A DNA stretch of 50,307 nucleotides, taken from a virus (taxonomy: Duplodnaviria > Caudoviricetes). The position numbers and the translations under genes were made by a program. The stretch is taken from positions 1 to 50,307 of the IMG/VR virus record IMGVR_UViG_3300038309_000012; one strand, 5' to 3'. The stretch's first letter is position 1. Every line of letters starts with the position of its first letter. This document shows, one piece after another, positions 3,342-45,965 of the stretch. The notes beneath the pieces are model-generated. The model was not told the origin of the DNA, searched no databases, and was given only the letters and a program-made list of their open reading frames with translations.

Positions 3342-3530
3342 CTATTTCTCGTCAAGAGGTTTGTCAGTTACAAAACGGAGTACTATGTTAAGTACAGTGT
3401 AGAACGCTGTTACAGTTTCTACAGACATTTCATAACCAAATGATTTGGAAATTGCTACTATAGCGGCCATTAGTGCATTAATATTCACTGTTTTGCTCTT
3501 ACCAGTGAGTGCAGCTATAAGTTTATTCAT
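3342..3530 (-). CDS. Small membrane protein, holin-like
   Basis: 62 aa, two hydrophobic stretches, KSKT...N start and NIVLRFVTDKP end typical of small phage holin-like proteins. Confidence 0.5.
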   Translation of the reverse strand: MNKLIAALTGKSKTVNINALMAAIVAISKSFGYEMSVETVTAFYTVLNIVLRFVTDKPLDEK

Positions 3531-4132: not shown

Positions 4133-4202
4133 TTAATTTTTATTCATTTTTAGAACAAACTAGTAAGTTCAATTCTAGTTGTCTTCCACTAATGATCCGC
4201 CC

Positions 4203-4227
4203 AGACTGTTTAATAACTAAACAGACT
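4203..4227. repeat. 25-bp palindrome copy 2
   Basis: AGACTGTTTAA TAA CTAAACAGACT. Confidence 0.8.
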
Positions 4228-4483
4228 AAGTTTTAACTTCGTTAAAATTTTTTCTAAAATTTTTTTGGTTTAGTTTGTAATTTAACATTTACTCACATTT
4301 ATTGAAAACTAGGCACAAAATATTTGGAAGGCAACCCGCCCGATAATAGGGTGACTTTCCCCCTTCGAGTTGCTAGAAGAAAGGTTAATGGCATGGTAGC
4401 TGCAATTGCAATAAGTGGGCCAAAGGAGTTAGGTGGTGGGTGGAATTAGTTGAAATAAATGTTAAGAAAGGTGAAAATAACTG

Positions 4484-5022: not shown

Positions 5023-5033
5023 TAAGGTAAGGT

Positions 5034-5058
5034 AGAGCGTTTAATTTTTGAACGGTCT
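5034..5058. repeat. 25-bp palindrome copy 3
   Basis: AGAGCGTTTAA TTT TTGAACGGTCT. Confidence 0.85.
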
Positions 5059-5211
5059 GGGAGCGATGCAACTCATGGACAAACGGAAGAAAGAGCGTAG
5101 AGGTAAACGTGGACTTAGCGATTATCAAGTTATTAAGGCAGTAGAGTTGATGATTGCTAGGGTGATTAATGACATTGAATTTAATAAGAAAGAAAACAAG
5201 GAGGATTAACT

Positions 5212-6882: not shown

Positions 6883-7032
6883 ATGTTTACATTATGGTTT
6901 GAGGGGTTAGTTTGGGTTATAGACGAGATTAATCCTGGTATATACAATAACACATACACTAGTGAAATACTATCAAAAGCTTTAGATAATGACTCGTGTA
7001 TGATAAAGCTCAGTAGATGGTTAATGTGGTAG
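6883..7032 (+). CDS. Small hypothetical protein (49 aa)
   Basis: AAGGAG RBS, open frame by hand; stop is the palindrome's TAG. Confidence 0.6.
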   Translation: MFTLWFEGLVWVIDEINPGIYNNTYTSEILSKALDNDSCMIKLSRWLMW

Positions 7033-7055
7033 ATTGTTTAAATTTTAAACAGCCT
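7031..7055. repeat. 25-bp palindrome copy 4
   Basis: AGATTGTTTAA ATT TTAAACAGCCT. Confidence 0.85.
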
Positions 7056-7087
7056 AAGTATAAATAAGAAGAATAAAAGGAGGAAGT

Positions 7088-7381: not shown

Positions 7382-7383
7382 TT

Positions 7384-7408
7384 AGACCGTTTAAATTTTA
7401 AACAGTCT
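7384..7408. repeat. 25-bp palindrome copy 5
   Basis: AGACCGTTTAA ATT TTAAACAGTCT. Confidence 0.9.
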
Positions 7409-7514
7409 AAGTATAAATCAACAAATTTAATTCCAACTACTTGACCTACCATAAATGGTATGGTATGGTTGAGGAAAATGTAGGTAAGGTTAACTTTAAC
7501 TAAGGAGAAAACAA

Positions 7515-8952: not shown

Positions 8953-9127
8953 TTGCGAAGGAATAGGCTTTATTAGTGACATTTGCTACTATTGCAGCGG
9001 CTCTGGTGAAGGACCAACAGATGGGACAATCTGCAAGACTTGTAAAGGTACGGGCGAACTGAATGAAATTTGCTCTACTTGCAAAGGCTTAGGAGAGATA
9101 ACTATTAAAGAAAGAGGAAACCAATGA
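8933..9127 (+). CDS. DnaJ-type zinc-finger protein
   Basis: Four CxxCxGxG repeats. Confidence 0.75.
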   Translation: MIQTCHDCEGIGFISDICYYCSGSGEGPTDGTICKTCKGTGELNEICSTCKGLGEITIKERGNQ

Positions 9128-9483
9128 GACTATGGCATGTAGACCTCATCCCAAAATTACCAAGACAGCAACTACTTGGCCAGCATCGTGAATGCTGTGC
9201 ACTTCGTGGTAAGGGATGGGGAAAGAGGCATTCAACAGTAGATTATGTTTTTAAGTATCCTATTTCTAAACTTTTCTGCTATCATAAAAAAGTAATGGAC
9301 GAAATGCAGAGAAGAGGTTATAGTGTATCAGAGGAATGGAAACTGCCACAATACCGAGGTAAAGAATTATGTATAGACGATTCAATTCTTGACGCTTGGG
9401 ATGGTGCATGCTATCCTGAGCATAATGATAAATATTTTCAAGAATGCATAGAAAATCTTAAACGTAAAGGTATTGTTGTATAA
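9124..9483 (+). CDS. TIGR02328-type / pyrimidine-dimer DNA glycosylase (endonuclease V-like) protein
   Basis: MRLWH..LIPKLPRQQLLGQHRECCALRG.GWGK.HSTVDYVF signature. Confidence 0.8.
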   Translation: MRLWHVDLIPKLPRQQLLGQHRECCALRGKGWGKRHSTVDYVFKYPISKLFCYHKKVMDEMQRRGYSVSEEWKLPQYRGKELCIDDSILDAWDGACYPEHNDKYFQECIENLKRKGIVV

Positions 9484-9506
9484 AACAACTATGAAAGGAG
9501 AACTAA

Positions 9507-9821
9507 ATGATCCAAGGAAAAGACCTTGCATGGCATTATGATGCCTGTATCGAGATGTGGAATGAGATAGCAGAAGGGATGGATGCTAATGAGTCAGACT
9601 ATGATATTAGTGTCAAGAAAAAAACTACATTATGTAAAATGTATTATACTCATAGTAATTGCTTTGCTTGTGAAGCATTTAATTGCGATGACTGTCCATT
9701 TGCAGTATATGGTAATTGTGGTGAAATTGGCTCTCCTTACAAGAATTTCGAAGACCATAAAGGAACTCAACAAGACGCAATCGCCATAGCACAATTGTTT
9801 ATAGACTATTATCCTGAATAG
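9507..9821 (+). CDS. Cys-rich hypothetical protein
   Basis: CFAC...CDDCP; AAGGAG RBS; ends on the palindrome's TAG. Confidence 0.7.
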   Translation: MIQGKDLAWHYDACIEMWNEIAEGMDANESDYDISVKKKTTLCKMYYTHSNCFACEAFNCDDCPFAVYGNCGEIGSPYKNFEDHKGTQQDAIAIAQLFIDYYPE

Positions 9822-9844
9822 ACTGTTTAATTTTTAAACAGTCT
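9820..9844. repeat. 25-bp palindrome copy 6 (perfect)
   Basis: AGACTGTTTAA TTT TTAAACAGTCT. Confidence 0.95.
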
Positions 9845-9860
9845 GAAAGTAAAGTAAGAT

Positions 9861-10100
9861 ATGAAACTCTTTCTATGCAAAACTCACAATTGTCACATAA
9901 CTACCAAAACCTGCCTAGCTCGACTCCGTAATACTACGTTTGGCTTTACTCATAAAAGGCGCCCTGATATGATTGATTCTGTACATCGGTGCTGGTATTG
10001 TGACCTAGGCAAAAAACTAGCAAAGGAGAACAATATTGAAAACCCTATTGAAAAGTCAAATAGTAGAAAAAAGAAAGAAAAGGTGGAAAGTGGTGAGTAA
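9861..10100 (+). CDS. Hypothetical Cys-containing protein
   Basis: ORF in co-oriented cluster. Confidence 0.6.
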   Translation: MKLFLCKTHNCHITTKTCLARLRNTTFGFTHKRRPDMIDSVHRCWYCDLGKKLAKENNIENPIEKSNSRKKKEKVESGE

Positions 10101-10182
10101 TTTAGTTCTTGCCGTAGCATGGATTGCTATAGGATATTTGTTTATAGTAATCATGTTTTCTTTTGGAAAACCTTATAGGTAA
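10093..10182 (+). CDS. Small membrane peptide (29 aa)
   Basis: GTG start, MSNLVLAVAWIAIGYLFIVIMFSFGKPYR; fills the gap between ORFs. Confidence 0.45.
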   Translation: MSNLVLAVAWIAIGYLFIVIMFSFGKPYR

Positions 10183-10196
10183 AAAGGAGGTATTTA

Positions 10197-10496
10197 ATGC
10201 TGCCTAACAAAAATGAAAGTGGTAATTCTTATCGAGGATATATACTTCTAGACCCTAATGGAGATTGGATAGTAGTACAGGAAATAGAAGAAGGAGTAGG
10301 TATTACGTTAACTATGCTGAATGATAGAAATGATAGGGCAGTATGTATGAAATTTTTGAACTCTATCACAGATAAAATATTTTGGAACTATGTAGTAAAT
10401 TGTATTAGAGAAGGGAAATATGCTTCACCTATCTCTACCTTTAAAAATACAGGTGGAAAGTCAGTTCCAGCATCAAGTTGCGCCTTCGCTATGTAA
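10197..10496 (+). CDS. Hypothetical protein
   Basis: AAGGAGG RBS. Confidence 0.7.
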   Translation: MLPNKNESGNSYRGYILLDPNGDWIVVQEIEEGVGITLTMLNDRNDRAVCMKFLNSITDKIFWNYVVNCIREGKYASPISTFKNTGGKSVPASSCAFAM

Positions 10497-10507
10497 AAGG
10501 AGAAATT

Positions 10508-10666
10508 ATGATAGTAACTATGAAATCATTCATTGATGGTAAAGTAACTACCTTCAATCTAAGCAATTCTCATTGTGAAGTATTAGGCCTGGGAACTCCA
10601 GAATTCAAAAACTCATTCGAAACTTATTATCAAGCAGAACTACTGGCTATTACTAGGTACATTTAA
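10508..10666 (+). CDS. Hypothetical protein
   Basis: AAGGAG before ATG 10508. Confidence 0.6.
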   Translation: MIVTMKSFIDGKVTTFNLSNSHCEVLGLGTPEFKNSFETYYQAELLAITRYI

Positions 10667-10683
10667 ACTAAAGGAGAAAAACT

Positions 10684-10980
10684 ATGGGCAAATCACAAAA
10701 ATTAAACGCAGAATTGAAACAAACTCTTGACAAACTGGTAGAAATTTCAAAAGAAATGGGCACTAATGAAATTATGGCCGTTCCTGGGTATGTAATTTAC
10801 ATCGAATCCAGAGATGAAATCATCTCCTATGCAAATGCTCAAGCAAAGTTCATCCTAGAAAGCGCAAAGCTAAACATCGATATGCTATATCAACACATGC
10901 CTGCAGAATTCAACGAGATTGTGAAGTTAGTTCGCGATCTCGTAGTCAGTTCAGCTGAAAACGGTGGAATTGTGCATTAA
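10684..10980 (+). CDS. Hypothetical protein
   Basis: AAGGAG RBS. Confidence 0.75.
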   Translation: MGKSQKLNAELKQTLDKLVEISKEMGTNEIMAVPGYVIYIESRDEIISYANAQAKFILESAKLNIDMLYQHMPAEFNEIVKLVRDLVVSSAENGGIVH

Positions 10981-11011
10981 TGCTGCGATTTAAAAATGTT
11001 TAAATTAATTG

Positions 11012-11040
11012 TTGACATTATGTTTAAAATGATTTAACAT
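11012..11040 (+). promoter_or_regulatory. Sigma70-type promoter
   Basis: TTGACA-17 bp-TAACAT in an intergenic gap with an AT-rich upstream region. Confidence 0.6.
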
Positions 11041-11118
11041 GGTTATGTAAATTTGATTCACACCTTGACCGGATTGGCCGGTCTAGACTAAAACTAAGTA
11101 AAACTAAGGAGAAAACAA

Positions 11119-11484
11119 ATGGTAAAGAAAGAGGTTAGCGCAACCGCAAAAGATGGTAATGAAGTAGTTGGTAATGTAACTGTGACCGTAAACTTTCCTG
11201 AAACTGTACAAGAAGCTCTGGATAATGGTATTTCAGAAGAAGCCCTTCTCAGCAATGCCTTTGCCAACTGGAAAGTAACGCTGCAAAGTGCAATTAGAAA
11301 TCGCCTCAAAGCTGGAAAATCTGTAGACGAAATCCAGGCTGACATGGACTCAGCGAAGATGGGCGTAACTATGACAGCCAACAAGGTGGACCCGCAGCAG
11401 GCCTTCATCAACAAATTTAAAACGGCAAATCCGGAAGAGCAGGCAAAAATGCTGGCACTACTTCAAGAAGCTGCGCAGGCCTAA
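11119..11484 (+). CDS. Hypothetical protein
   Basis: TAAGGAG RBS, own promoter and downstream hairpin. Confidence 0.8.
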   Translation: MVKKEVSATAKDGNEVVGNVTVTVNFPETVQEALDNGISEEALLSNAFANWKVTLQSAIRNRLKAGKSVDEIQADMDSAKMGVTMTANKVDPQQAFINKFKTANPEEQAKMLALLQEAAQA

Positions 11485-11493
11485 TTACATTAA

Positions 11494-11524
11494 AGTGAGG
11501 GTCAATGCTGGGTTGGCCCTCACT
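11494..11524 (+). terminator. Hairpin, possible terminator
   Basis: AGTGAGGGTCAAT-GCTGG-GTTGGCCCTCACT. Confidence 0.5.
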
Positions 11525-11536
11525 AACAAAACAAAT

Positions 11537-11561
11537 AGTCTGTTCAAAAATTAAACAGTCT
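11537..11561. repeat. 25-bp palindrome copy 7
   Basis: AGTCTGTTCAA AAA TTAAACAGTCT. Confidence 0.9.
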
Positions 11562-11577
11562 AAAAGGAATAAAAGCC

Positions 11578-11829
11578 ATGAAGAAAAGCCTTCACAAAAT
11601 CATACCTAACCAAAATAACTTCATTAAAATAGCTAAGTATTTATCAAGGAAGAAAAAAGTCTCTACTTTCATAGACTGCAATACTGTAAGTTATTACATT
11701 AATGGTGAGTATTCTACACAAGTAAAATACACTGTATCATATGTAGACGACGATAACAAAGTAGACCAATACAATTTTTATTCTTTTACTGATCTTCTAA
11801 TCCACTTCCACAAAGAAATGAAAGGATAG
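11578..11829 (+). CDS. Hypothetical protein
   Basis: ORF with AAGGA RBS. Confidence 0.6.
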   Translation: MKKSLHKIIPNQNNFIKIAKYLSRKKKVSTFIDCNTVSYYINGEYSTQVKYTVSYVDDDNKVDQYNFYSFTDLLIHFHKEMKG

Positions 11830-13876: not shown

Positions 13877-14202
13877 GTGAAATTATTAGCTTTGGCTACA
13901 ACGAAGATTATGTAGTAGATGAATCATTTGATTTAAACCAACTACGTAAATTAAGACGAACTAAAAAAGTAGGAAATGTACGTACTTTAGATGAAAGTAA
14001 TAATAACATAACTGTTAAATTTGGTGCTACTATAACTATTGATGAAGAAGTAGTAAACGATGAGCTTCTACAAGAAACCAAAGAATCTCTTGAAAACTAT
14101 CGTAAATGGTATCATCAAGAACAGGAAAAAGTTAAAAACCTGAATGCTGACATAGATTGCATAAAGCAACAGATTAATGAGCTTAAAGGAGAACATTTCT
14201 AA
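13873..14202 (+). CDS. Hypothetical protein
   Basis: GGAGG RBS, ATGA overlap. Confidence 0.7.
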   Translation: MSEIISFGYNEDYVVDESFDLNQLRKLRRTKKVGNVRTLDESNNNITVKFGATITIDEEVVNDELLQETKESLENYRKWYHQEQEKVKNLNADIDCIKQQINELKGEHF

Positions 14203-14537
14203 TGCCTAAACATCTTTATTGCGCCCAGTGTGGTGAGGAACTCCTACAATTTCGCAAAGCTGTGAAAGGTGAAATCTTCGACTTCATCCAGCCCCACACT
14301 TGCGCTGAAGTTAAGGAACCTACACTGGAAAATGAGCCTATACCAGTTAAGAAAGAAAAACCTGGTACGGCTGAACTATCAAAAATGTTTGATGAGTTTC
14401 AGTTCGTTCAAAAATTAAACGGTCTGGGCAAATCAACAGGTGATAAACGTGAACCTGAAGTACTGCGTAAGGAGAAAGAAATAGAACCAACCTCTTCTGC
14501 TCCTTTAGCAGTGCAACAAATGATTAAGGATAAGTAA
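14202..14537 (+). CDS. Hypothetical zinc-ribbon protein
   Basis: CAQC...HTC; contains a palindrome copy in frame. Confidence 0.7.
   Translation: MPKHLYCAQCGEELLQFRKAVKGEIFDFIQPHTCAEVKEPTLENEPIPVKKEKPGTAELSKMFDEFQFVQKLNGLGKSTGDKREPEVLRKEKEIEPTSSAPLAVQQMIKDK
14401..14425. repeat. 25-bp palindrome copy 8 (intragenic)
   Basis: AGTTCGTTCAA AAA TTAAACGGTCT. Confidence 0.85.
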
Positions 14538-17782: not shown

Positions 17783-17784
17783 TT

Positions 17785-17809
17785 AGACCATTTAAAAATT
17801 AAACAGACT
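17785..17809. repeat. 25-bp palindrome copy 9
   Basis: AGACCATTTAA AAA TTAAACAGACT. Confidence 0.8.
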
Positions 17810-17844
17810 AAGGAATGGGAAACTGTTCCTTAGTCTAGCCTTTT
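17805..17844 (+). terminator. Intrinsic terminator-like hairpin
   Basis: AGACTAAGGAATGG-GAAA-CTGTTCCTTAGTCT then AGCCTTTT. Confidence 0.6.
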
Positions 17845-17862: not shown

Positions 17863-19053
17863 ATGCCCAACCATCGTGTTTTAATCCTAGGAATTGACGG
17901 CTACATTGGTTATCCTCTAGCACTACACCTTATCAAGCAAAATTTCGAAGTGTGTGGAGTAGATAACCTAAGTCGTCGTGATAGAGTACGCCACATAGGT
18001 GGAGCGTCTTTAACCAACATTGCTTCCTTTGATGATCGCGCTAATTATTTATCCTCGTTTAATAATTTCATAGATAACATGTCTCGTATTGATGTAGATT
18101 ACTACGATACAATATCTGCTGCAATAAAATATTTCAAACCTGATACAATAGTTCACCTAGCGCAAATGCCTAGTGCTCCATGGTCTATGATCAATGCCTA
18201 TCATGCGTATCAGACACAGCATGAAAATTGTATGGCTAATCTTAATGTACTCTGGGCTATGAAACAGCATTGCCCTAATGCACATTTGTTGAAGTTAGGA
18301 ACTATGGGAGAGTATGGCACACCTAATTGTGACATACCTGAAGGAGAGATTCCTAAGGAATGTTTAACTGGTGGTGTAGGCCCTTATGTAGGAGGTTACG
18401 ATGCTGGATGCCCTATGTCAGGCCTAATCTTCCCACGCCAACCTGGATCATTCTACCACCTATCCAAAGTCTTCGATACTTACAATGTAGACTTCGCTTG
18501 CCGTAACTGGGGCTTACGCTCTACTGATGTAATGCAAGGAGTAGTATATGGTCTTAATAAACCCAACAATAACATTGAAATTACTAGATTCGACTACGAC
18601 GAATACTTTGGCACTGCTATCAATCGTTTCTGCACTCAAGCTATTATCGAATATCCCATTACAGTCTACGGAAACGGAAACCAGACAAGAGGATATCTAC
18701 CACTTAAAGATTCTATCCAGTGCTTAACCTTAGCAATAGAAAATCCTCCTGAAGATGGAGAATGTAGGACATTCAATCAGTTTGAGGAAATCTATTCCAT
18801 TAACGAACTCGCTGACATCGTAAATCGTCAGGCACAAAAGCTAGGACTTAATCCAGGAATCACGCACATTTCTAATCCACGAAAGGAAAAGGAATCACAC
18901 TATTACAATCCAGAACATAGTAAACTTTTAGACTTAGGTTACAAACCTACAGATGATCTTGAAGGTGAGGTAGGAATCCTACTCCAACAACTCATGCCTT
19001 ACAAAGATAGGGTTAATAAAAAAGTTATTATGCCTAAGACTAAGTGGGAGTAG
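17863..19053 (+). CDS. sqdB: UDP-sulfoquinovose synthase (SqdB/SQD1/Agl3 family)
   Basis: GIDGYIG, VDNLSRR, SAPWSM, KLGTMGEYGTP, PGSFYHLSK, WGLRSTDVMQGVVYG, RFDYDEYFGTAINRFC, QTRGY, FNQF, NPRKE...HYY. Confidence 0.92.
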   Translation: MPNHRVLILGIDGYIGYPLALHLIKQNFEVCGVDNLSRRDRVRHIGGASLTNIASFDDRANYLSSFNNFIDNMSRIDVDYYDTISAAIKYFKPDTIVHLAQMPSAPWSMINAYHAYQTQHENCMANLNVLWAMKQHCPNAHLLKLGTMGEYGTPNCDIPEGEIPKECLTGGVGPYVGGYDAGCPMSGLIFPRQPGSFYHLSKVFDTYNVDFACRNWGLRSTDVMQGVVYGLNKPNNNIEITRFDYDEYFGTAINRFCTQAIIEYPITVYGNGNQTRGYLPLKDSIQCLTLAIENPPEDGECRTFNQFEEIYSINELADIVNRQAQKLGLNPGITHISNPRKEKESHYYNPEHSKLLDLGYKPTDDLEGEVGILLQQLMPYKDRVNKKVIMPKTKWE

Positions 19054-19260: not shown

Positions 19261-19270
19261 TTTAATAATT

Positions 19271-19295
19271 AGACTGTTCAAAAATTAAACAATCT
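19271..19295. repeat. 25-bp palindrome copy 10
   Basis: AGACTGTTCAA AAA TTAAACAATCT. Confidence 0.9.
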
Positions 19296-19312
19296 ATGAA
19301 AGGAATTAACTA

Positions 19313-19573
19313 ATGAACAAAGACACAGGTGAAATATTATCTTATTATAACATACCTAAAGAAGAAAAAGAAAACTACGTACCTCTAACAATGCGCGAAG
19401 CTAAATACCTAGTTAAAAGAAAACCAGACGCACGTAAAAACTGGATGAGAAACAAGCCTTGCCCTTGTGGATCTGGAAAGAAATTCAAACGTTGTTGCTG
19501 GGGTAAGAAAACTCCACAGAAAATATACGAGGAGGAAGTATCATGTCTGACAAACCATACATCCCAAGAATAA
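19313..19573 (+). CDS. SEC-C motif protein
   Basis: RNKPCPCGSGKKFKRCC. Confidence 0.85.
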   Translation: MNKDTGEILSYYNIPKEEKENYVPLTMREAKYLVKRKPDARKNWMRNKPCPCGSGKKFKRCCWGKKTPQKIYEEEVSCLTNHTSQE

Positions 19574-20015: not shown

Positions 20016-20199
20016 CATCTCAACTATGTCTTACTCAGACGCAGTTGAATACCTAAAGTCTCTACGCTATAGTAGGCGCATCCCTAAACGTCAACAGTCT
20101 AAAGCTACACAAGAAAAGAAGGCTAAAGCTAAAGCACTACCAAAGATTTCAAAAGTAGACGCACAACAATTACTTAAGTTATTAGGAGGATCAAACTGA
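19987..20199 (+). CDS. Small basic hypothetical protein
   Basis: Lys-rich ORF coupled to the next gene. Confidence 0.6.
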   Translation: MNLSSIQNPNISTMSYSDAVEYLKSLRYSRRIPKRQQSKATQEKKAKAKALPKISKVDAQQLLKLLGGSN

Positions 20200-21512
20200 T
20201 GTCAATCAAAGTTGGTAAAGTAGCTATGATCGAACGATCTAAAATCATCATAGGAGAACGCGCTCGTAAAGACATGGGTGACTTGACTTCGCTAGAAACC
20301 TCAATGACCGAGCGTGAAATGATTCAGCCTATTGCAGTAATCGACAATGAAGATTCTACTTACGAACTCCTAACTGGCGGCCGTAGAATGGCTGTGTTAG
20401 AAAAGCATGAAGTAGATGTAATCCCTTGTCGTATTTATTCTAAAGATATCTCTGACCATGAACGTAAGTCTATTGAACTAGCTGAGAATCTTTACAGAAA
20501 AAATTTCGAATACTATGAACATGACGCACTAGTAGCCCAAATCCACTCACTTCAACAACAAGCGCATGGAGTAAAACTAGGTGGTCCAGGTACTGGATGG
20601 GGACTCGCTGAGACAGGAGAACTGGTTGGCAAATCTAAAGGTTCAATTAGCTCAGCCCTCAAACGTGCGGAAGCTAGAGACAAATTCCCTGAACTCTTCT
20701 CTACATGCAAAGACCAGAAAGACGCTATGAAAGTTATGTCTAAAATGTCTGACCTAATAGTTCGTGAAGAAGTAGCTAAGCGTATCGAGGAGAATAAAAC
20801 AGGAGTTGTTAACGACCTAGCCAAACGCTACATACTAAAAGACTTCTTTGAAGGGGTAAAAGAAATACCTGATAATACTTACAACTGGGTGGAAATAGAC
20901 CCTCCTTACGCAATCGATTTAAAAAACGCTAAGAAAACAATAGATGGAAAAGCTATTCAAGAACATGACTATAATGAAATCCCTGCTAAAGAATACAAGA
21001 GATTCTTAACCAGACTTTTCAAAGAATGCTATCGTGTAATGGCTCCTGACTCATGGCTTATCTGTTGGTTCGGCCCTGAGCCTTGGTTTGAATCAGTTTA
21101 TGATTCTCTAATCAAGGCAAACTTTAGTGTTAAACGTATTCCTGGCTTGTGGGCTAAACCTTTAGGCCAGTCCAAACGTCCTTATGAATATCTAGGAAAC
21201 GCCTATGAAATGTTTTTCTATGCTAAGAAAGGAGAACCTAAACTCCACAAACCTGGTAGATCTAACATATTCCAATTCAGTCAGGTTCCACCTAACACCA
21301 AAACTCATCCTACCGAACGCCCTATTGAAATGATTAAAGAGGTATTAGACACTTTCGCTGCCCCTAATTCAAAAGGCTTAGTTCCTTTTCTCGGATCTGG
21401 TAACACCTTACTAGCGGCCTACGAACTAGGTATGGAATCTATTGGATTTGAGCTAGGCAAAAGCTTCAAAGATTCATTTCTAATCAAAGTTAATAAGAAG
21501 TATAGTGGGTAA
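20199..21512 (+). CDS. ParB-like domain + HTH fused to N6A/N4C DNA methyltransferase
   Basis: MIQPIAV, LLTGGRRMA, IELAENLYR (ParB); LAETGELVGKSKGSISSAL (HTH); IDPPY, HPTERP, FLGSG (beta-class amino-MTase). Confidence 0.88.
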   Translation: MSIKVGKVAMIERSKIIIGERARKDMGDLTSLETSMTEREMIQPIAVIDNEDSTYELLTGGRRMAVLEKHEVDVIPCRIYSKDISDHERKSIELAENLYRKNFEYYEHDALVAQIHSLQQQAHGVKLGGPGTGWGLAETGELVGKSKGSISSALKRAEARDKFPELFSTCKDQKDAMKVMSKMSDLIVREEVAKRIEENKTGVVNDLAKRYILKDFFEGVKEIPDNTYNWVEIDPPYAIDLKNAKKTIDGKAIQEHDYNEIPAKEYKRFLTRLFKECYRVMAPDSWLICWFGPEPWFESVYDSLIKANFSVKRIPGLWAKPLGQSKRPYEYLGNAYEMFFYAKKGEPKLHKPGRSNIFQFSQVPPNTKTHPTERPIEMIKEVLDTFAAPNSKGLVPFLGSGNTLLAAYELGMESIGFELGKSFKDSFLIKVNKKYSG

Positions 21513-21641: not shown

Positions 21642-21839
21642 ATGAATAAATTAATTTATTGTCTAGGTAAAAGATCAAAATACGTTCGCAAAATATACTA
21701 CACACTTACTAACAAATGGCTATGGGGGATAGTGGGATTTGTAATAGACTATGCAACAATAGAAAAGAAAGATATTCCTGCATATACGCAAGATGAATTT
21801 GATAATACTATAGAACAGATTTTTAACTATAAGAAATAG
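21642..21839 (+). CDS. Hypothetical protein
   Basis: ORF ending on the palindrome's TAG. Confidence 0.55.
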   Translation: MNKLIYCLGKRSKYVRKIYYTLTNKWLWGIVGFVIDYATIEKKDIPAYTQDEFDNTIEQIFNYKK

Positions 21840-21862
21840 ACCGTTCAAAAATTAAACAACCT
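21838..21862. repeat. 25-bp palindrome copy 11
   Basis: AGACCGTTCAA AAA TTAAACAACCT. Confidence 0.88.
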
Positions 21863-21876
21863 AAGGAATAAACTAT

Positions 21877-24542: not shown

Positions 24543-24845
24543 ATGGAATTTGAAGAAATAGAATGGAAAGTAATTGAGTGGGCTAAAGAACGTGGTATAT
24601 ATGAAAACTACTCTGCTCAAGCACAGATAGCTAAGCTTATTGAAGAACTTGGTGAGTTAGCTAATGCATTAAATAGAGAAGATTCTCCAGAAGTAATGGA
24701 TGCTTTAGGTGATATGTTAGTAGTAATGACGAATATATGTAGAGGGACATTAAAACTCCCATTGACTATTTGTTATGAGGAAGCATACAATCAAATCAAA
24801 GACCGTAAAGGTAAGATGGTAAACGGAACTTTTGTAAAGGATTAA
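24543..24845 (+). CDS. MazG-like nucleotide pyrophosphohydrolase
   Basis: KLIEELGELA...DALGDMLV...AYNQIKDRKGKMVNGTFVK. Confidence 0.85.
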   Translation: MEFEEIEWKVIEWAKERGIYENYSAQAQIAKLIEELGELANALNREDSPEVMDALGDMLVVMTNICRGTLKLPLTICYEEAYNQIKDRKGKMVNGTFVKD

Positions 24846-25063: not shown

Positions 25064-26284
25064 ATGGAAAACCTAAAGCGAATTCTACCTAACTGGATAG
25101 ACGCCTTTATGAAATACACAGAGAATACTGAACCACCTATTCTCTTTCGTAAGTGGACTGCCTTATCTTGCATAGCTGCAGCACTACAACGAAAGTGTTT
25201 TATAAACTGGGGTACTTCCCTAACGTTTTATCCAAACTTATACATTATTCTAGTAGGCCCATCAGCTACTGGCAAAGGTACGGCTATGTCACCGGCATTA
25301 GATATCATAGACAAAATCCCATCTATAAAACAAGCTGCTAATGCTACATCACTACAGGCGCTCATTAGGAAACTCAAAGATACTAACCTTACTGATATTG
25401 ATATTAGATCAGGCAAGCAACAGTTTCACTCATCTATGACAATCTTCAGTAAGGAATTTACTGTCTTCCTCGGCTATCATAATCGTGAACTAATGGCCGC
25501 CTTATGTGATTGGTATGACTGTGATCGTAAATGGAGTTATGAAACTATATCTAGACAAAAGGAGGAGATCAATGGAGTATGGGTAAATATGATAGGTGGT
25601 ACAACACCTGACTTGATTCAGTCTTCCCTACCTATTGAATCAATTGGTGGTGGTCTTACTAGCCGAATCATATTTGTATTCGAGGAGAAGAAAGACAAGC
25701 TAGTAACTGTGCCTATTCAATCATCAGCAGATCTTGAACTAAAAGAAATGCTAATAAATGATTTAGAAAAGATATCCCGCTTATCAGGGCAATTCGGTTA
25801 CACGGAAGACTTCTGCACAACGTGGTCAGATTGGTGTGTTGAAGCTGAGAACAACCCACCTTTTTACGACCCAAAGTTTGATGGTTATCTAGGTCGTCGT
25901 CGAACTCACTTAATGAAGCTAGCAATGATCGTATCTGCTTCTAAAGGCTCACATGATCTTATCCTTACTAAGGATGATTTAGAAGATGCAATCCAACTAT
26001 TGGCAGAAGTAGAAGTTAAAATGGGCTTGGTATTCAAAGGTGTTGGTAAATCTGATATATCTTCACTAATGAATAAATCTATAAACTTCTTCGCATCATC
26101 AAAGGTTAAACAAATACCTATATTCCAATACGCTAGACATTTCAACAACGATATGGATAAATCTATGATGGATAGAGTATTTGCTACACTTGAGGCTTCT
26201 AGAATGATTAAGATTGTAAATAAGCCTGGTGGGGATAGTTATATTGAAGTACTTGAAGATATAAATAGACCGTTTAAAAATTGA
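25064..26284 (+). CDS. DUF3987/YfjI-like P-loop protein, putative replicative helicase
   Basis: PNLYIILVGPSATGKGT, MIGGTTP, GGGLTSRIIFV. Confidence 0.7.
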   Translation: MENLKRILPNWIDAFMKYTENTEPPILFRKWTALSCIAAALQRKCFINWGTSLTFYPNLYIILVGPSATGKGTAMSPALDIIDKIPSIKQAANATSLQALIRKLKDTNLTDIDIRSGKQQFHSSMTIFSKEFTVFLGYHNRELMAALCDWYDCDRKWSYETISRQKEEINGVWVNMIGGTTPDLIQSSLPIESIGGGLTSRIIFVFEEKKDKLVTVPIQSSADLELKEMLINDLEKISRLSGQFGYTEDFCTTWSDWCVEAENNPPFYDPKFDGYLGRRRTHLMKLAMIVSASKGSHDLILTKDDLEDAIQLLAEVEVKMGLVFKGVGKSDISSLMNKSINFFASSKVKQIPIFQYARHFNNDMDKSMMDRVFATLEASRMIKIVNKPGGDSYIEVLEDINRPFKN

Positions 26285-26291
26285 ACAGACT
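26267..26291. repeat. 25-bp palindrome copy 12
   Basis: AGACCGTTTAA AAA TTGAACAGACT; spans the end of 25064..26284. Confidence 0.9.
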
Positions 26292-26308
26292 AATTAAAGG
26301 AGAACTAT

Positions 26309-26581: not shown

Positions 26582-29500
26582 TTACTTAGCTCTCAACCGC
26601 ATAACTTCCTTCCTAAAATCCTCGCTAATAACCCCACCAGCCTTAGAGACAGTAGCATATTCCTTCCACAGCTGCTGTCTCTCCTTTTCATTTGCATTAT
26701 CTAAACGATCAACAAATAGTTGCGCCCTAACTTCTGGACTCAAACCTTTAAGCCTTTTCCAGAAAGATTTCTCAGGTAGATTTTTAATAGCTAATTCATA
26801 CTTAAACCTATCAATCAATCTTTTTCTTTCATCTAAATCTTTAACACGCCTAATAAAATCAAACACGTCTTTTCTTTGGTTAGTACCTTCATACAAATAT
26901 CCGTCTGTTAGTCTATCTACTTCTCTACTATTAATAAATCTTTTTAACGTGTCAGCTTCTCCAGCTTCATCTATCTTCTCCGCATGTTTTGAATAAGGAT
27001 TAGTCACACCAAAGAATCTTTTAATTAAAGGTAACTTACTCAAAGTCATTGCTAGGTGCTGTTCTTTCTTGTCTTTAGGTAAATCTCCAAAAGTCTTTTC
27101 ATATCCTTGATTAAGTAACCAACTCCACACTGTGCCATTAGTTACTAATTCATTAACAGAATATTTTAATCTCTCAGGACTCAACCCAGTTTTCTCTCCA
27201 ATATCTATAAAAGCTTTAGGAGTTTCTCCTGGTATATACTCCTCTTTGCTTTGTGGCCAACTGAAAGGTTTATCAGTCTGTCGCCAAATATCTTCATTCA
27301 TCCAGAAATCTTTATTAGTAATATAACCTATAGCTGCTGACATAGTAGGAGGTAAAATCTCTGTAACTCCAATAGGACTTTGTTCTTTAAAGCCTTTAAT
27401 AACTCTATCAACATCAAAATCTTCATCACCTAACCATTTATCAGCTGAAGCTTCAAACAAAGCTTTGAAAAACTTCTGGCCAGGATCAATAGGAATTTTA
27501 AAATATGGATAACGTTTTTGGTTCTGTTCATCATAAAAACCAAATTGATCTCCTAGAGGGATAATCAAATAGTTATTATTAACCATAGAACCTTTAAGTT
27601 CTTTAGTTGTTTCAGGACTTAGTTGTTTTGAGGCTAAGTAAACTCCAGTAACTAACGCACCGAATTGAGCTAATTTATAAGTTCCTTCTAAAGGTTTTTC
27701 TTTCAAGCTTCTAAACAATCCTCTAGTACCTTGAATACTAGCATTTAAATAAGGAACAGCATTATCAATTGCTTTTGATATACTACCACCCTGACCAAAG
27801 TCCATATAATCCCTAGCCACAAAAGTAGCTTCTTGTGTAATGTCTTTATTCTTTCTAGCTTCTTCCACGCTAATACCTTGTTCTTTAGCTCTCTGCTTTA
27901 TGACTCTTTCTCTTATAGCTAATCGCGTAACAAGCTCAGAAGTTTCTCCAAAGAAGCCTATATAATCCATAAACTTATCAATAGCAGAATCTATATGCCT
28001 ACCACGCTGAAAAATTCTACCTTGGTGGACTAGAAATTCCATACCTCCACCTTCTTTAATATATTGTTCATACCTAGGCCCACGATTCCAAGCATCGCCT
28101 GCAACGTCTACTATATCCTTACCAATCTGTAAACCGTATATTGGTAAGTTACTATTATAAGGACTAACAGCCTTACCATTATTGTACATACTAGTAGCAA
28201 ACCAAGCATGCATAACATCACGAGGTATATTAGCTAAAGCAAATCCCCAGTTTATACCAGTAGCCATAGTCCTAAGTACTGGAGACCCAGACGCATATCT
28301 TAACAGTGTGCTCATTCTATAACTTAATTCAGGTGATCCATTTAACCATCCTTTAGAAAATTCAGGAGAAAGATACATAGCTTTACGTTGGCCACCTTCA
28401 AATACAAAAATTCTATTCCATCCTGAAGGTATGATGCTATCTTTATTCTTAATCCTTACCATGTCATTAGTAGGATTAATCCTAGCAATTTCCAGCAAGG
28501 CTTGATTAGCTTTATTATTTAATACTCTACCATAACTTCTATTAAATACTTCCAAAGCCATTATTTCTGAACTAGGTTCAAATATATCTGTTTCTCGTCC
28601 TTTAGCTAATGCTTCAACTCCTGAATCAAACACAGTTTTTTTCTTATTACCTAATCTAGCTTGATACTGCTTATCGTAAATTTCTACTAGTTTCAACTTT
28701 CTATAATTATATGAACTAAGATCATTAAACTCTTGTTCACTTATTACACCAGAATCTAACATATCTTTAAGCGGCTTCTTCATCCACTCATAGTATGCTT
28801 TAGCTTTACTTCTAATAATAGCTTCTTTTTCTGGGCTGAGTTTTTCTATCTTACCAAATAGTTCACTATACGCAGCAGTACTTTTAGGTTCAAGACCTTT
28901 AGGAAAATTAAACTTACCTGGATCTTTATATCTAGCTATTTCATTCATACGGTCTGATAGGATTAAAGTATCCAGTATATTTTTTTCTTTACTATTTAAT
29001 CCATCATATACTTCTTTTCTCATCTGAGTAAGCATATTTGCAGCCTCAGCTGAGGCACCTTTAGACAATACAAATTTCTGAAGTGCTCTATATCCTTCTT
29101 CTCCATGACTAAGTAAAGATTTCCTAACATTTGCGACGTCTACAAAGGCTTTTGTGGCAGCATCTTTAATCATACCTAAAGCTTGCATAGGTTTAAATGA
29201 CTTAACACTACTAGCATATTTAGTATAATCAGATACATTTTTAGCGTCTATTGGATTTACATCCATAGAAGTCTCAGCTATTTGCTGTTCAGACTGTTCA
29301 ATTTTTAAACGGTCTACTCCTCTCGCCCACTTTGCAGCTTCACTAACATTACTTTTCCATAGTTCAAATTCGCTATTACTCCTAAACATGTTTCGTATTT
29401 CTGACGCTTTACCGGCTAAGTCACTCAACGTATTTTGTGTAGCAGTAATATCTACATCTTCACCATGATACCATCTATTAACATCATTGATTAATTTCTG

Positions 29501-30748
29501 TGTAGCTACACCTGGGTCGTCTATTTCTTTACCTTCAAATAGTTTAGCATACCTAGCTGTTTTCTCAGCGTCTTGAAAGTAAGGACTTTCTTTATTTATC
29601 TGCCTTTCACTTTCTACTTTAATAGCTATGTCTTCACTAATCTGATTATTAAGCTCTTCTGTTTTCTGCTCAAGATTTATTTTCTTCTCATTTATAATCT
29701 CTTGATTTTTAACTTTAGTAGGTTCATCAACTACAGAGTTATTCATCTCTTGCATTTTGTCTATTTGTATTCTTTCATTTATGGTTTCGTCTAACTGATT
29801 TATTCTTCTTTCTGATACTTTCCTAGGCAAACCTCTCCATAGAAAGAAAACATCTAATGCTGTATCAAACATTACTTCTTCTGCTGGACGATCAGTAAAT
29901 GGATTACCTCCTACTTCCAAAGCTCTTTGAGCATTCAAGCCTATAAGGCCAGTTATAATTCTAGCTGCTTGTTGCGCTCCTTCTTTTGGAAACATACCTC
30001 TAGCTATGCCAAAAACTGCACCAGTAATAGCTCCACTTTTAGTAGCATCATATATCTTACCTGCTGCTTGTGTGAAAGTAGGTTGCTCTAAGGCTTCTCC
30101 TGTAGCAGTTAAGCCAATAGCAGGGCCTAAAACAGCAGCTTCGCTAAGAGCTGATTTTAACACTCTACTTATAACTGATCCTTCAGCTGAGGCAGCAGGT
30201 AAGAATTTAACTATTGGTTTAGTAATACTTTCTACTATTTTAGCCGGTCCAACTAATAATCCAGCTAATGAACCTAAACCATTACCTATATACCCACTAG
30301 CATCAGTAGGTTTAAAATCTTCTTCACCAGTTAGAGTAGATCTAATGGCTGGTAGTACTCCCAAAGTAACTACGTTAGTAAATCCACTAGCTGCTTGTTC
30401 TATAAACTCAGGAGAATTTCTAAATTCAGCTGTAGTTTTTCCATTTTCATTAGCCAATAATTCCACTACAGCTTGAGCTCTAGCGCGATCACTTAATTGG
30501 GGTTGAATGTCTGTGCCAAACCAACTATTTATTTTACCTATAGCTTGTTCTATTAGATTATTTTTCTTTTCATAAGGTTCTAGTACAGATATCCTGTCTG
30601 GCTCATTAGTTTGTTTTCCCCCAACAAACATTTGATCAGTGAGTGACTGAGGACTAGCCTCAGTCTTTCCACTAAACAATTGATCAGATAAAGATTTACT
30701 ATCCTGTTGTTCTTTGTTAAATAGTTGATCAGTCAAGTTTAATGTCAC
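26582..30748 (-). CDS. Large internal virion/ejection protein (LPD38-like C-terminal region)
   Basis: 1388 aa, last late gene; F..ANIPRD, MDFGQGG, VPYLNASIQG, YFKIP motifs typical of podovirus large polyvalent proteins. Confidence 0.7.
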   Translation of the reverse strand: MTLNLTDQLFNKEQQDSKSLSDQLFSGKTEASPQSLTDQMFVGGKQTNEPDRISVLEPYEKKNNLIEQAIGKINSWFGTDIQPQLSDRARAQAVVELLANENGKTTAEFRNSPEFIEQAASGFTNVVTLGVLPAIRSTLTGEEDFKPTDASGYIGNGLGSLAGLLVGPAKIVESITKPIVKFLPAASAEGSVISRVLKSALSEAAVLGPAIGLTATGEALEQPTFTQAAGKIYDATKSGAITGAVFGIARGMFPKEGAQQAARIITGLIGLNAQRALEVGGNPFTDRPAEEVMFDTALDVFFLWRGLPRKVSERRINQLDETINERIQIDKMQEMNNSVVDEPTKVKNQEIINEKKINLEQKTEELNNQISEDIAIKVESERQINKESPYFQDAEKTARYAKLFEGKEIDDPGVATQKLINDVNRWYHGEDVDITATQNTLSDLAGKASEIRNMFRSNSEFELWKSNVSEAAKWARGVDRLKIEQSEQQIAETSMDVNPIDAKNVSDYTKYASSVKSFKPMQALGMIKDAATKAFVDVANVRKSLLSHGEEGYRALQKFVLSKGASAEAANMLTQMRKEVYDGLNSKEKNILDTLILSDRMNEIARYKDPGKFNFPKGLEPKSTAAYSELFGKIEKLSPEKEAIIRSKAKAYYEWMKKPLKDMLDSGVISEQEFNDLSSYNYRKLKLVEIYDKQYQARLGNKKKTVFDSGVEALAKGRETDIFEPSSEIMALEVFNRSYGRVLNNKANQALLEIARINPTNDMVRIKNKDSIIPSGWNRIFVFEGGQRKAMYLSPEFSKGWLNGSPELSYRMSTLLRYASGSPVLRTMATGINWGFALANIPRDVMHAWFATSMYNNGKAVSPYNSNLPIYGLQIGKDIVDVAGDAWNRGPRYEQYIKEGGGMEFLVHQGRIFQRGRHIDSAIDKFMDYIGFFGETSELVTRLAIRERVIKQRAKEQGISVEEARKNKDITQEATFVARDYMDFGQGGSISKAIDNAVPYLNASIQGTRGLFRSLKEKPLEGTYKLAQFGALVTGVYLASKQLSPETTKELKGSMVNNNYLIIPLGDQFGFYDEQNQKRYPYFKIPIDPGQKFFKALFEASADKWLGDEDFDVDRVIKGFKEQSPIGVTEILPPTMSAAIGYITNKDFWMNEDIWRQTDKPFSWPQSKEEYIPGETPKAFIDIGEKTGLSPERLKYSVNELVTNGTVWSWLLNQGYEKTFGDLPKDKKEQHLAMTLSKLPLIKRFFGVTNPYSKHAEKIDEAGEADTLKRFINSREVDRLTDGYLYEGTNQRKDVFDFIRRVKDLDERKRLIDRFKYELAIKNLPEKSFWKRLKGLSPEVRAQLFVDRLDNANEKERQQLWKEYATVSKAGGVISEDFRKEVMRLRAK
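29291..29315. repeat. 25-bp palindrome copy 13 (intragenic)
   Basis: AGACTGTTCAA TTT TTAAACGGTCT, encoding RLKIEQS. Confidence 0.9.
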
Positions 30749-31811: not shown

Positions 31812-31828
31812 ACGTTGTTCCTCCAAAT

Positions 31829-31853
31829 AGATTGTTCAAAATTTAAACGGTCT
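31829..31853. repeat. 25-bp palindrome copy 14
   Basis: AGATTGTTCAA AAT TTAAACGGTCT; supplies the stop of 31852..32715. Confidence 0.9.
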
Positions 31854-32715
31854 AAAGAAATGCTAAAGCTGCACCTAGCCCTCCTCCAATGAGCGCTCCT
31901 ACTGGACCTCCTCCTACCACTGCACCAGCAGCCGCACCAGCCATAGCACCGCCTAAAGCTTGCTTTGCAATAGATGGGCCTTCAACACCTTGTGCTACTG
32001 CTGAACCTGAAATAGACGCTAGTAAATTTCCACCGTACTTAAAAATACTAAGATCCCATTCAGCATCTGCCTTATCATATTCTACGTTCTCTCTATTCTC
32101 TTCTCCTTTAGCTACTATCTTAATACGATTAGATTCAACTACCATCCTAGTATAGCTCTCTTCCCAGGCATACTTGTTAGTCATAAGTTGAACCATATTT
32201 TGAGTTATACTAACTGCTGCCTTGATTCTAAGATCTCCAGAATACTTGGCTACATCTCTAGCATTAAAGGCTTCTATAATTCCCCTGCCAATTATAAATG
32301 CTGAACTCTGAACTGCATTTATATTCCTCATGCCACCTTCAAATCTAGGTAGCACAACACTAGTTAAATTATCATTTAACTGCGATGAGAAAGAATCTAC
32401 ATCTGCATCCAAATTATTCTGCATAGCAGTAACAGCTGCTGTATAAAGAGCCATTACATCAGTACCTTCATCTATTCCAGCAAGTATAGTGTTAAACCCA
32501 CTAATAGCTGCTTCCCAAGCTGCTATGGGAACATCTGGATCATATGCAGTAGCAGTAGCAAAAGGAGATGAACCAATAGCTGTATCCATTACTTCTGTTA
32601 TAGAAGTACTAAGTGTATCAGTACCTGTGTCATCCAGAGCCATGCTGTGCCAATCTTTCATGTAATCAGGATAATCAGTTTTACCCGAAGATCCTCCACC
32701 TCCTGAACCTCCCAT
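31852..32715 (-). CDS. Putative ejection protein with glycine-zipper C-terminus
   Basis: MGGSGGGG start, ALGGAMAGAAAGA...GALIGGGLGA end. Confidence 0.6.
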   Translation of the reverse strand: MGGSGGGGSSGKTDYPDYMKDWHSMALDDTGTDTLSTSITEVMDTAIGSSPFATATAYDPDVPIAAWEAAISGFNTILAGIDEGTDVMALYTAAVTAMQNNLDADVDSFSSQLNDNLTSVVLPRFEGGMRNINAVQSSAFIIGRGIIEAFNARDVAKYSGDLRIKAAVSITQNMVQLMTNKYAWEESYTRMVVESNRIKIVAKGEENRENVEYDKADAEWDLSIFKYGGNLLASISGSAVAQGVEGPSIAKQALGGAMAGAAAGAVVGGGPVGALIGGGLGAALAFL

Positions 32716-35778: not shown

Positions 35779-35792
35779 CTGAGTCACCAATT

Positions 35793-35817
35793 AGACTGTT
35801 TAAAAATTAAACGGTCT
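35793..35817. repeat. 25-bp palindrome copy 15
   Basis: AGACTGTTTAA AAA TTAAACGGTCT. Confidence 0.92.
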
Positions 35818-35843
35818 GGGACAGTCATCGCTGACCATCCCAG
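35815..35843 (-). terminator. Hairpin after major capsid gene
   Basis: - strand CTGGGATGGTCA-GCGA-TGACTGTCCCAG, running into a palindrome. Confidence 0.6.
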
Positions 35844-38413: not shown

Positions 38414-38415
38414 TT

Positions 38416-41121: not shown

Positions 41122-41135
41122 CTTTGTTTTCCTTT

Positions 41136-45956: not shown

Positions 45957-45965
45957 TTAACCTCC

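Follow-up and report, generated by a model that had tools for sequence, protein, structure and literature searches.

The virus record IMGVR_UViG_3300038309_000012 is 50,307 bp long, carries a completeness rating of 100% and was analysed in full; we refer to this whole stretch as the window. At 20199-21512 it encodes a protein in which a ParB-type N-terminal domain, a helix-turn-helix (HTH) and a DNA amino-methyltransferase are fused, and about 18 copies of a palindrome are scattered along its length. A first-pass annotation, made from the letters of the genome alone, had proposed that the fusion is the reader of these palindromes, loading at each and sliding outward to methylate phage DNA. Comparison with relatives now supports the first part of that proposal: one residue at the start of the predicted recognition helix covaries with a base of the palindrome across 73 genomes, and the fusion in all likelihood binds the palindromes sequence-specifically. 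Taken together, the comparisons suggest a system of the ParB/parS type whose cargo is an enzyme and whose sites are distributed along the genome.

A ParB-type protein with a methyltransferase domain

The gene and its parts all lie on the plus strand and are listed here with the evidence for each in brackets; NTP stands for nucleoside triphosphate.

20199-21512, plus strand: gene for the fusion of a ParB N-terminal domain, an HTH and a beta-class DNA amino-methyltransferase, 437 aa (Pfam, PDB profile matches, AlphaFold2 [AF2] model)
20217-20498, plus strand: ParB N-terminal NTP-binding domain (ParB-CTPase fold), residues ~7-100, with boxes I-III at R21/R23, G60-R63 and E93-R100 (invariant residues, VIA matches)
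20595-20699, plus strand: HTH, residues 133-167, the recognition helix beginning at K147, codon 20637-20639 (predicted secondary structure, alignment to 6t1f_D, covariation)
20811-21509, plus strand: beta-class N6/N4 DNA methyltransferase domain with DPPY at 234-237 and FLGSG at 397-401, also the site of the predicted dimer interface, residues 293-357 and 385 (VIA matches, homodimer prediction)

Pfam places ParB_N (PF02195) at residues 21-98 (E 4e-08; 33.6 bits against a curated cut-off of 26.3) and N6_N4_Mtase (PF01555) at residues 230-425 (E 2.4e-20; 73.9 bits, cut-off 26.7). The motifs named in the first-pass annotation are all present in the one open reading frame (ORF): G60-G61-R62-R63, E93-L-A-E96-N97-L-Y-R100, D234-P-P-Y237 and F397-L-G-S-G401. 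In an alignment of 78 relatives R21, R23, G60, R62, R63, E93, E96, N97 and R100 are invariant, and boxes I (C motif), II (GxRR) and III (ENxxR) of the ParB-CTPase fold are all conserved in the fusion. The methylase residues D234, P236, Y237, G399, S400 and G401 are invariant as well, with DPPY (motif IV) lying N-terminal to FxGxG (motif I), which is the beta-class order. ParA is indeed missing, as had been stated: the ParA-type families PF13614 and PF01656 gave no match at E<=1 across the whole 50-kb record, and both matched in 14/14 control genomes.

The AF2 model of the full-length protein has a mean predicted local distance difference test score (pLDDT) of 85.4, and an HTH is predicted between the ParB_N and methylase domains (helix 136-143, turn 144-146, helix 147-162). 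PDB profile matches to the N-half are led by Noc 7ng0 (E 4.5e-17), followed by ParB/Spo0J entries; those to the C-half are N4CMT, CcrM and M1.HpyAVI. In structure searches with VIA, the methylase domain matched M.BceJIV 8urk_D (Z 25.5, root-mean-square deviation [rmsd] 2.1, 210 residues aligned) and CcrM 6pbd_A (Z 24.6, rmsd 2.9, 225 aligned). Because the full-length search was filled by methylases, the N-terminal 205 residues were folded separately (pLDDT 84.4) and searched alone. The N-domain then matched PadC 6ryk_B (Z 13.4, rmsd 2.6, 99 aligned), ParB-CTPgammaS 7bnr_A (Z 12.4, rmsd 2.1, 91 aligned) and ParB-CDP 6sdk_A (Z 12.1, rmsd 2.4, 94 aligned). With the HTH included, the matches were the Caulobacter ParB-parS complex 6t1f_D (Z 11.9, rmsd 3.7, 162 aligned; model 8-190 on chain 44-236), Noc 7nfu_B (Z 10.8, rmsd 5.1, 167 aligned) and KorB 8qa9_A (Z 9.6, rmsd 6.7, 173 aligned).

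Pointers to the modified base differ, the best sequence and Foldseek matches including an N4-cytosine enzyme (8s9n/8s9o) and the best VIA matches being N6-adenine enzymes. DPPY is the typical motif of N6-adenine methyltransferases, and because this is the motif that the fusion carries, N6-adenine methylation would be the most likely modification.

When two copies of the fusion were predicted together, the pair scored 0.73 (0.74, 0.73 and 0.72 in the individual runs) against 0.00 for the best control; in calibration, the 0.73 mark was attained by 20/30 proteins solved as one-chain pairs and by 1/23 solved as single chains. The runs share at least 94% of their contacts, with a partner pLDDT of at least 75, and place a symmetric interface inside the methylase domain (residues 293-357 and 385). 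Residues 205-437 form the methyltransferase domain at the place where ParB carries its C-terminal dimerisation domain, and the predicted interface would fit a methylase that has replaced that domain. Beta-class methylases such as CcrM have been solved as dimers, and the score may reflect likeness to those structures.

A 27-bp palindrome spaced along the genome

The 17-mer core that had been noticed at first occurs 16 times in the window and 0 times in each of 100 dinucleotide shuffles. The palindrome is therefore real, but the length of 17 bp originally given to it was wrong: the flanks extend the core to a 27-bp dyad, TAGACNGTTYAAWWWTTRAACNGTCTA, which reads TAGAC, N, GTTYAA, WWW, TTRAAC, N and GTCTA in order and has 17 matches in the window at up to 3 mismatches, where 0 are expected. 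The union of the 17-mer search and the 27-bp dyad search comprises 18 sites. No strand is assigned to them, and each was found by both searches unless stated.

1267-1293: palindrome copy
4202-4228: palindrome copy with a degenerate core, 3 mismatches (27-bp search)
5033-5059: palindrome copy
7030-7056: palindrome copy
7383-7409: palindrome copy, a perfect match to the consensus
9819-9845: palindrome copy
11536-11562: palindrome copy
14400-14426: palindrome copy with an exact 17-bp core (14405-14421) and degenerate outer boxes, within ORF 14202-14537 (17-mer search)
17784-17810: palindrome copy with the core off by one base (27-bp search)
19270-19296: palindrome copy
21837-21863: palindrome copy 3' of the fusion gene, with a syntenic copy in most relatives
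26266-26292: palindrome copy
29290-29316: palindrome copy (core 29295-29311) within a 1388-aa ORF at 26582-30748, minus strand
31828-31854: palindrome copy
35792-35818: palindrome copy
38415-38441: palindrome copy
41135-41161: palindrome copy
45965-45991: palindrome copy

Sixteen of the 18 sites fall in the 7.0% of the window that lies outside the ORF set. They mostly follow the stop codon of one gene and precede the ribosome-binding site of the next, as a rule 10-20 nt ahead of a ribosome-binding site or start codon. In many copies the first three bases of the outer box TAGAC, TAG, also terminate the gene upstream (at 9819-9821 and 21837-21839, for instance, where ORFs end at 9821 and 21839), and in such copies the palindrome is wedged exactly between the stop codon and the following ribosome-binding site. 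As for the two copies inside ORFs, either sites are tolerated in coding sequence or ORF 14202-14537 is miscalled.

The few-kilobase spacing described in the first-pass annotation holds and is more regular than chance would give. Gaps average 2.8 kb, with a coefficient of variation (CV) of 0.46 against a mean CV of 1.02 for random picks among 69 gene junctions (P=0.00015), and the largest measures 5.6 kb where 11 kb is expected (P=0.002). Even spacing was found in 3/3 complete genomes examined, the other two being the relative G003 (21 sites, gap CV 0.58, P=0.006 against a uniform null) and Desulfofustis phage OP947158 (L005; 9 sites, gap CV 0.50, P=0.03). Such spacing is consistent with a reach-limited, coverage-type function.

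The placement of the sites also brings to mind a different role. On plasmid RK2 the CTP switch KorB, a member of the ParB family, has about a dozen palindromic operators, and the fusion could be a global regulator of this kind, binding the palindromes mainly to control transcription or translation of adjacent gene cassettes, with a methylase that is local or accessory. The position of 16/18 sites just ahead of genes and the alignment of the N-half to KorB would both suit a regulator, and the even spacing could simply reflect cassette structure. Intergenic placement says little, however, as a fixed 27-bp element hardly fits outside non-coding DNA, and two copies do lie inside ORFs. A consistent -35/-10 pattern was not seen in the flanks by eye, no promoter scan having been made. 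Moreover, the catalytic and S-adenosylmethionine (SAM) motifs of the methylase are invariant in 78 sequences, and for this reason methylation does not appear to be vestigial. We consider a mainly regulatory fusion unlikely.

It is also conceivable that the palindromes are not read by the fusion at all, and serve as RNA hairpins (terminators, or processing or stabilising elements) or as operators of some other phage or host protein. Copies between genes would be well placed for such roles, and some do fold: as sense-strand RNA, six copies gave -9.0, -12.0, 0, -3.1, -6.8 and -5.1 kcal/mol (z-scores of -5.2, -4.7, +1.2, -2.2, -2.0 and -1.7), of which 2/6 are clearly stable. In the other four copies, however, the folds are weak or absent, with 0 kcal/mol for the copy after the fusion gene, and no uridine tract was seen 3' of the palindromes in their flanks. 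Nor does base pairing appear to be what is kept. Core pair 5/13 is T-A in 7 of the 16 copies, C.A in 6 and T.G in 3, with not one compensated C-G (compensatory changes 0/9), and the combinations at pair 1/17 (C-G 3, T-A 5, C-A 4, T-G 4) equal independence. Since the variable pairs are uncompensated, conservation would act on the base sequence of the individual halves, which is what one would expect if the DNA is bound by a protein dimer.

If another protein were the reader, the window does encode a second HTH protein (3523-4071, minus strand), which lay outside the covariation screen described below. In the Desulfofustis phage, however, its homologue is annotated as a small terminase subunit (L005 40662-41084). 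The protein is HTH_23 / sigma-70 region 4-like and adjoins a divergent non-coding region with the palindromes at 4202 and 5033; a pattern search for its relatives found none.

Relatives, and covariation of residue 147 with the half-site

A search with the fusion protein returned 33 IMG/VR loci and one with polA returned 71, and a profile of the fusion found at least 474 relatives in IMG/VR, of which 80 were kept. The sole close relative that is cultured or named belongs to Desulfofustis phage LS06-2018-MD01 (43% identity). Within a large group of phages the fusion belongs to the core genes, and it lies directly upstream of polA in 68/71 polA loci. Two of the remaining three loci begin inside polA. 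The third, L099 (polA at 9106-11628; classed as a provirus), has 9 kb of upstream DNA with no fusion there or elsewhere in its 32-kb, 67%-complete record, and no repeated palindrome family was found in it. Co-occurrence of motif and gene, which had been suggested as a check, thus tells us next to nothing, the gene being present in almost all relatives; the one true absence, L099, does go with an absence of palindromes, and covariation is the informative test.

Every palindrome-bearing relative has its own version of the palindrome, often at a syntenic spot, for example just after the fusion stop codon. Members of the main clade share the outer box AGWYN and differ in the 7-base inner arm (GTTTAAT, GTTCAAT, ATTAAAT, CATTAAW, GTAAAAT, GTCCAAA, GTTTTGG, TATAAAT). 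In a distant clade both parts differ, with inner arms GTCCCAA, GGTGATT, GGTTAAA, TGTGAAT and CGCAATA and outer boxes CCCTWT, CTAT and CTTC, the methylase domain still being 47-52% identical. Within a genome it is the sequence that is conserved, and dispersed sites that change in concert between genomes argue for a genome-encoded, co-evolving reader. The outer box could be contacted by the methylase domain or by a further DNA-binding element in the ParB part. In one relative with H147 and a palindrome of the GGTGATT type (L026), the palindromes stand as tandem pairs about 36 bp apart, at 5345/5382 and 15067/15103.

A half-site consensus was assigned to 73 distinct fusions, using a de novo finder (at least 3 sites) or, in the main clade, a template finder (at least 3 sites); one locus, L033, was excluded before this count. 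In calibration, the de novo finder returned at least 3 sites in 49/135 real and 2/135 shuffled loci, and at least 4 sites in 30 and 0. Half-site positions p7 and p6 lie 6 and 7 bp from the dyad centre, respectively. Sorted by residue 147 and the bases at p6p7, the 73 genomes comprise K with GT (32); H with GG (7); R with TG (3) or GG (2); Q with CA (3), AA (1) or GA (1); D with AT (7); N with AT (3) or GT (1); G with AT (1); P with GT (4), CT (1) or TT (1); T with GT (3); V with GT (2); and S with CT (1). At p7, G occurs exclusively with H or R147 (12/12), A exclusively with Q147 (5/5) and T with all other residues (56/56). The pattern is still perfect in the 47 genomes whose families have at least 4 sites.

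On a maximum-likelihood tree built without the HTH columns, the presence of a base other than T at p7 changes 11 times and that of H, R or Q at residue 147 likewise 11 times, about 11 changes being coincident, and independent pairs are concordant 11/11 on the best tree. Among the 436 columns of the fusion in a MAFFT --auto alignment, column 147 is the sole exclusive signature for both p7=A and p7=G; in a quicker alignment, where some HTH turns were mis-registered, it scored 0.91 and was not flagged as exclusive for A. Six neighbour families (polA, DUF3987, AAA_24, PD-(D/E)XK, w17369 and w19543; 60-69 rows, 2,037 columns) contain no exclusive column, and column 147 is therefore the only one among the 2,473 columns of well-sampled neighbour genes, the fusion included. 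A first screen of 55 genomes had placed residues 145, 147, 148, 149 and 152 of the recognition helix among the top columns for arm positions 5-10.

The pattern recalls a known switch in specificity. According to the available text of PMC7383237, G170, K171 and S172 of Caulobacter ParB are conserved parS contacts and R173 hydrogen-bonds a parS guanine, whereas Noc has a glutamine at that position (Q173) and reads adenine; four residues including position 173 suffice for the ParB/Noc specificity switch. Where the turn and the start of the helix are predicted, the fusion reads G144-K145-S146-K147, and the Noc chain among the PDB profile matches shows G-K-G-Q at its HTH turn; the full-length profile alignment of the fusion to Noc has the HTH out of register. 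Going by motif and predicted secondary structure, we infer that K147 corresponds to ParB R173 and Noc Q173, and by this analogy the pairing of K, R or H with G and of Q with A would be the same chemistry as the ParB/Noc switch. The distances of p6 and p7 (7 and 6 bp) bracket the 6.5 bp calculated for the second base of the 8-bp half of a 16-bp site, which agrees with a core resembling parS plus one extra central base. The outer TGTT...AACA, on which the likeness to parS had first been based, turns out to coincide with those half-site positions whose bases follow residue 147.

We take the HTH of the fusion to be the probable reader of the palindromes because residue and base covary in 73 genomes, the protein is predicted to dimerise, and L099 lacks both the gene and the palindromes. 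For the palindromes to have a different reader or to act as RNA, the covariation would have to be a phylogenetic coincidence. About 22 relatives that have the fusion and no detectable palindromes would fit that view, but it has to accommodate a single exclusive column among 2,473, about 11 coincident changes and a pairing of residues and bases with a known chemical precedent. We therefore regard it as very improbable.

Proposed mechanism, known systems and neighbouring genes

We propose that the fusion works as a dimer and is an NTP switch of the ParB family in which a beta-class DNA amino-methyltransferase has taken the place of the C-terminal dimerisation domain. The HTH of each monomer would read one palindrome half, the ~18 evenly spaced copies being the protein's own parS-like sites, and binding there would bring the methylase preferentially to phage DNA. 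Once the N-domains had closed in an NTP-dependent manner, the dimer, whose other end would be held together by the methylase domains, would leave its site as a clamp and methylate the flanking few kilobases. Even spacing of the sites would then provide methylation coverage of the whole genome, and only site-bearing (phage) DNA would be marked.

The invariant NTP-switch motifs are consistent with a nucleotide-switch protein. We put the probability of the whole chain, from binding through the clamp to flanking methylation, at roughly 0.5. The step after binding, in which the fusion slides or spreads and methylates in cis, is tentative, and we would rate it somewhat below even odds. It is tempting to go further and to speculate that a large phage family marks its own genome through a ParB-type clamp with a methylase cargo, which would have the evenly spaced parS-like palindromes of the phage as its only loading sites and would slide over and methylate the intervening DNA, phage DNA being modified and host DNA not, while the address evolves by the code K-GT, H-GG, R-NG, Q-NA, D-AT. 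We hold this broadest version to be possible but, on balance, doubtful.

A more modest variant keeps the binding and drops the sliding: the ParB-HTH part would be an address label for a site-tethered methylase, and methylation would be confined to the palindrome and its immediate flanks, with the outer box AGWYN perhaps the methylase target. The constancy of this box in the major clade while the inner arm changes points to a second, more constant reading element, for which the methylase domain is an obvious candidate. In the available part of PMC12704722, moreover, 17/28 purified ParB-fold proteins bound no NTP. However, a mere tether would not be expected to keep NTP-pocket boxes I-III invariant, and it is hard to see what even spacing in 3/3 complete genomes would be for if the enzyme acted only locally. 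In the distant clade the outer box also differs (CCCTWT, CTAT, CTTC) despite a methylase domain that is 47-52% identical. A tethered, non-sliding methylase thus seems improbable to us, about as much so as the regulator considered above.

Several observations weigh against the binding-and-sliding proposal. At the level of the protein, Pfam HTH_ParB (PF17762) has no match in the window at E<=10, and searches of the PDB with the HTH alone (phmmer of residues 120-200; an HTH-only profile) found no ParB. The equivalence of K147 and R173 is a match of motif and of predicted secondary structure rather than a residue-level superposition. The predicted dimer has no N-domain contact, so that closure of the ring is assumed. 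The 17/28 proteins without bound NTP count here too, as does the fact that N6N4-methylase fusions are not named among the NTP binders in the same portion of PMC12704722, which adds that neither sequence nor AlphaFold3 predicts the nucleotide bound by ParB-CTPase folds. As for the sites, their length of 27 bp and their conserved outer box AGWYN are more than one HTH per half-site would account for, and their position immediately upstream of ribosome-binding sites would suit a regulator equally.

The comparison with relatives contributes further points of this kind. Twenty-four distinct fusions with at least 15 kb of locus lack an odd-centred palindrome family. A looser search rescued one of them clearly (L122, 6 sites) and one weakly (L110/L068), and in the remaining ~22, which include 9 with P147 and 5 with R147, palindromes are at shuffle level; either multi-copy sites are not universal among the fusions or the finder misses some. 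The 9 fusions with P147 all belong to these 24, and 6 others with P147 do carry palindromes; part of the family may have loosened its site specificity or given it up. In L033, two candidate palindrome families were rejected as shuffle-level, and the better one would be discordant (K with p7=A; 6 found against 2.2 expected, a number reached by 4/200 shuffles). On well-supported branches 5/5 independent pairs are concordant, which with a two-sided p=0.0625 misses 0.05. Less-sampled families also show exclusive columns, two for G in w14541 (48 rows) and one for A in the ligase (41 rows). In a first mutual-information screen, families with 26-39 rows likewise scored a perfect 1.0; that screen was confounded by row number and column diversity and was replaced by the exclusive-signature test and the tree-based pairs.

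Canonical ParB-parS shares with the fusion system the N-terminal NTP-binding fold with boxes I-III, dyad-symmetric sites and, judging by covariation in the fusion family, a first recognition-helix residue that sets a base near the outer edge of the half-site. The fusion, in contrast, comes without ParA and without the C-terminal ParB dimerisation domain, in place of which it has a methylase with a predicted interface, and its HTH escapes the Pfam HTH_ParB model. Whereas parS forms an origin-proximal cluster, the genome of the fusion has ~18 evenly spread sites of 27 bp with an odd centre, and the replicon is a lytic-type phage genome. Noc and its binding sites (NBS) resemble the system in three ways: Noc is the best profile match to the N-half (7ng0), its many sites are dispersed along the genome, and the switch between Q-adenine and R-guanine occurs at the motif-equivalent residue (available text of PMC7383237). 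The cargo of Noc, however, is a membrane-binding helix (as described in the accessible part of PMC8429893) and not an enzyme, and its sites and biology are unlike those of the fusion.

KorB-OB of plasmid RK2 and HerB (YfjB) of F-like plasmids are ParB-family NTP switches that serve non-partition purposes, as the fusion would, but both are regulators without enzymatic cargo. HerB places a ParB N-domain and HTH on a different, novel dimerisation module in a clamp-like dimer, a precedent for a foreign core, and no consensus site was found for it (both from the accessible part of PMC13370423). With the beta-class N6-adenine enzymes CcrM, M.BceJIV, M.MboIIA and M.RsrI the fusion shares its fold (Z 22-25.5), DPPY, motif order and a predicted catalytic-domain homodimer. 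These enzymes find short targets by their own domains, and the fusion would add a separate 27-bp address through its ParB-HTH part.

The same two Pfam domains occur together in the ParB-CTPase fold/N6_N4 methyltransferase fusions catalogued in PNAS in 2025 (PMC12704722), which, in the part of that survey available, are enriched in phages and prophages and for which anti-defence roles are suggested. That part of the survey gives no cognate DNA site, HTH specificity or mechanism for the fusions, and our literature search found no report of a cognate site, specificity code or loading/sliding mechanism for ParB-methylase fusions. The present locus, in contrast, combines a central HTH, probably of the ParB type, with sites throughout the genome and a code that links residue to base; with its relatives, it thus supplies a candidate cognate site, a specificity residue and a testable mechanism for this class. 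If the proposed mechanism is true, the fusion would be the first known ParB-type switch to deliver an enzyme along DNA and would give a virus the means of restricting an epigenetic mark to its own genome. The family would, in addition, offer naturally matched pairs of protein and site in which the experimentally established ParB R173/Noc Q173 switch recurs many times, and such pairs could serve as orthogonal tools for DNA labelling or targeted methylation.

The proposal further suggests a reading for unexplained dispersed dyad repeats elsewhere, for example in Cluster O mycobacteriophages. Their 17-bp repeats (TGTTCGGNNNCCGAACA, >30 copies per genome; PMC4351075) are likewise dispersed 7+3+7 dyads with similar outer bases, and the available portion of that paper predicts them to be bound by a dimeric protein and describes them as unrelated to promoters. 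This is an analogy only. Gp90 of Corndog (L177; 9425-10933, minus strand) has ParB_N with a GQRR box and an HTH-like stretch dissimilar to that of the fusion, has no methylase and is absent from the tblastn matches of the fusion N-half; it is thus a protein of another kind than the fusion.

Around the fusion gene lies a replication/recombination module that comprises a ligase, HIRAN, a PD-(D/E)XK nuclease, AAA_24, the fusion itself, polA, a MazG-like protein and a DUF3987 primase-like protein. The MazG-like pyrophosphohydrolase is encoded at 24543-24845 and a small SEC-C-motif protein at 19313-19573. Elsewhere in the window, two family-2 glycosyltransferases and an NAD-dependent epimerase/dehydratase are found at 1291-3341 (minus strand) and 17863-19053 (plus strand), and their substrate could be DNA or host surface sugars. 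A pyrimidine-dimer DNA glycosylase is encoded at 9124-9483.

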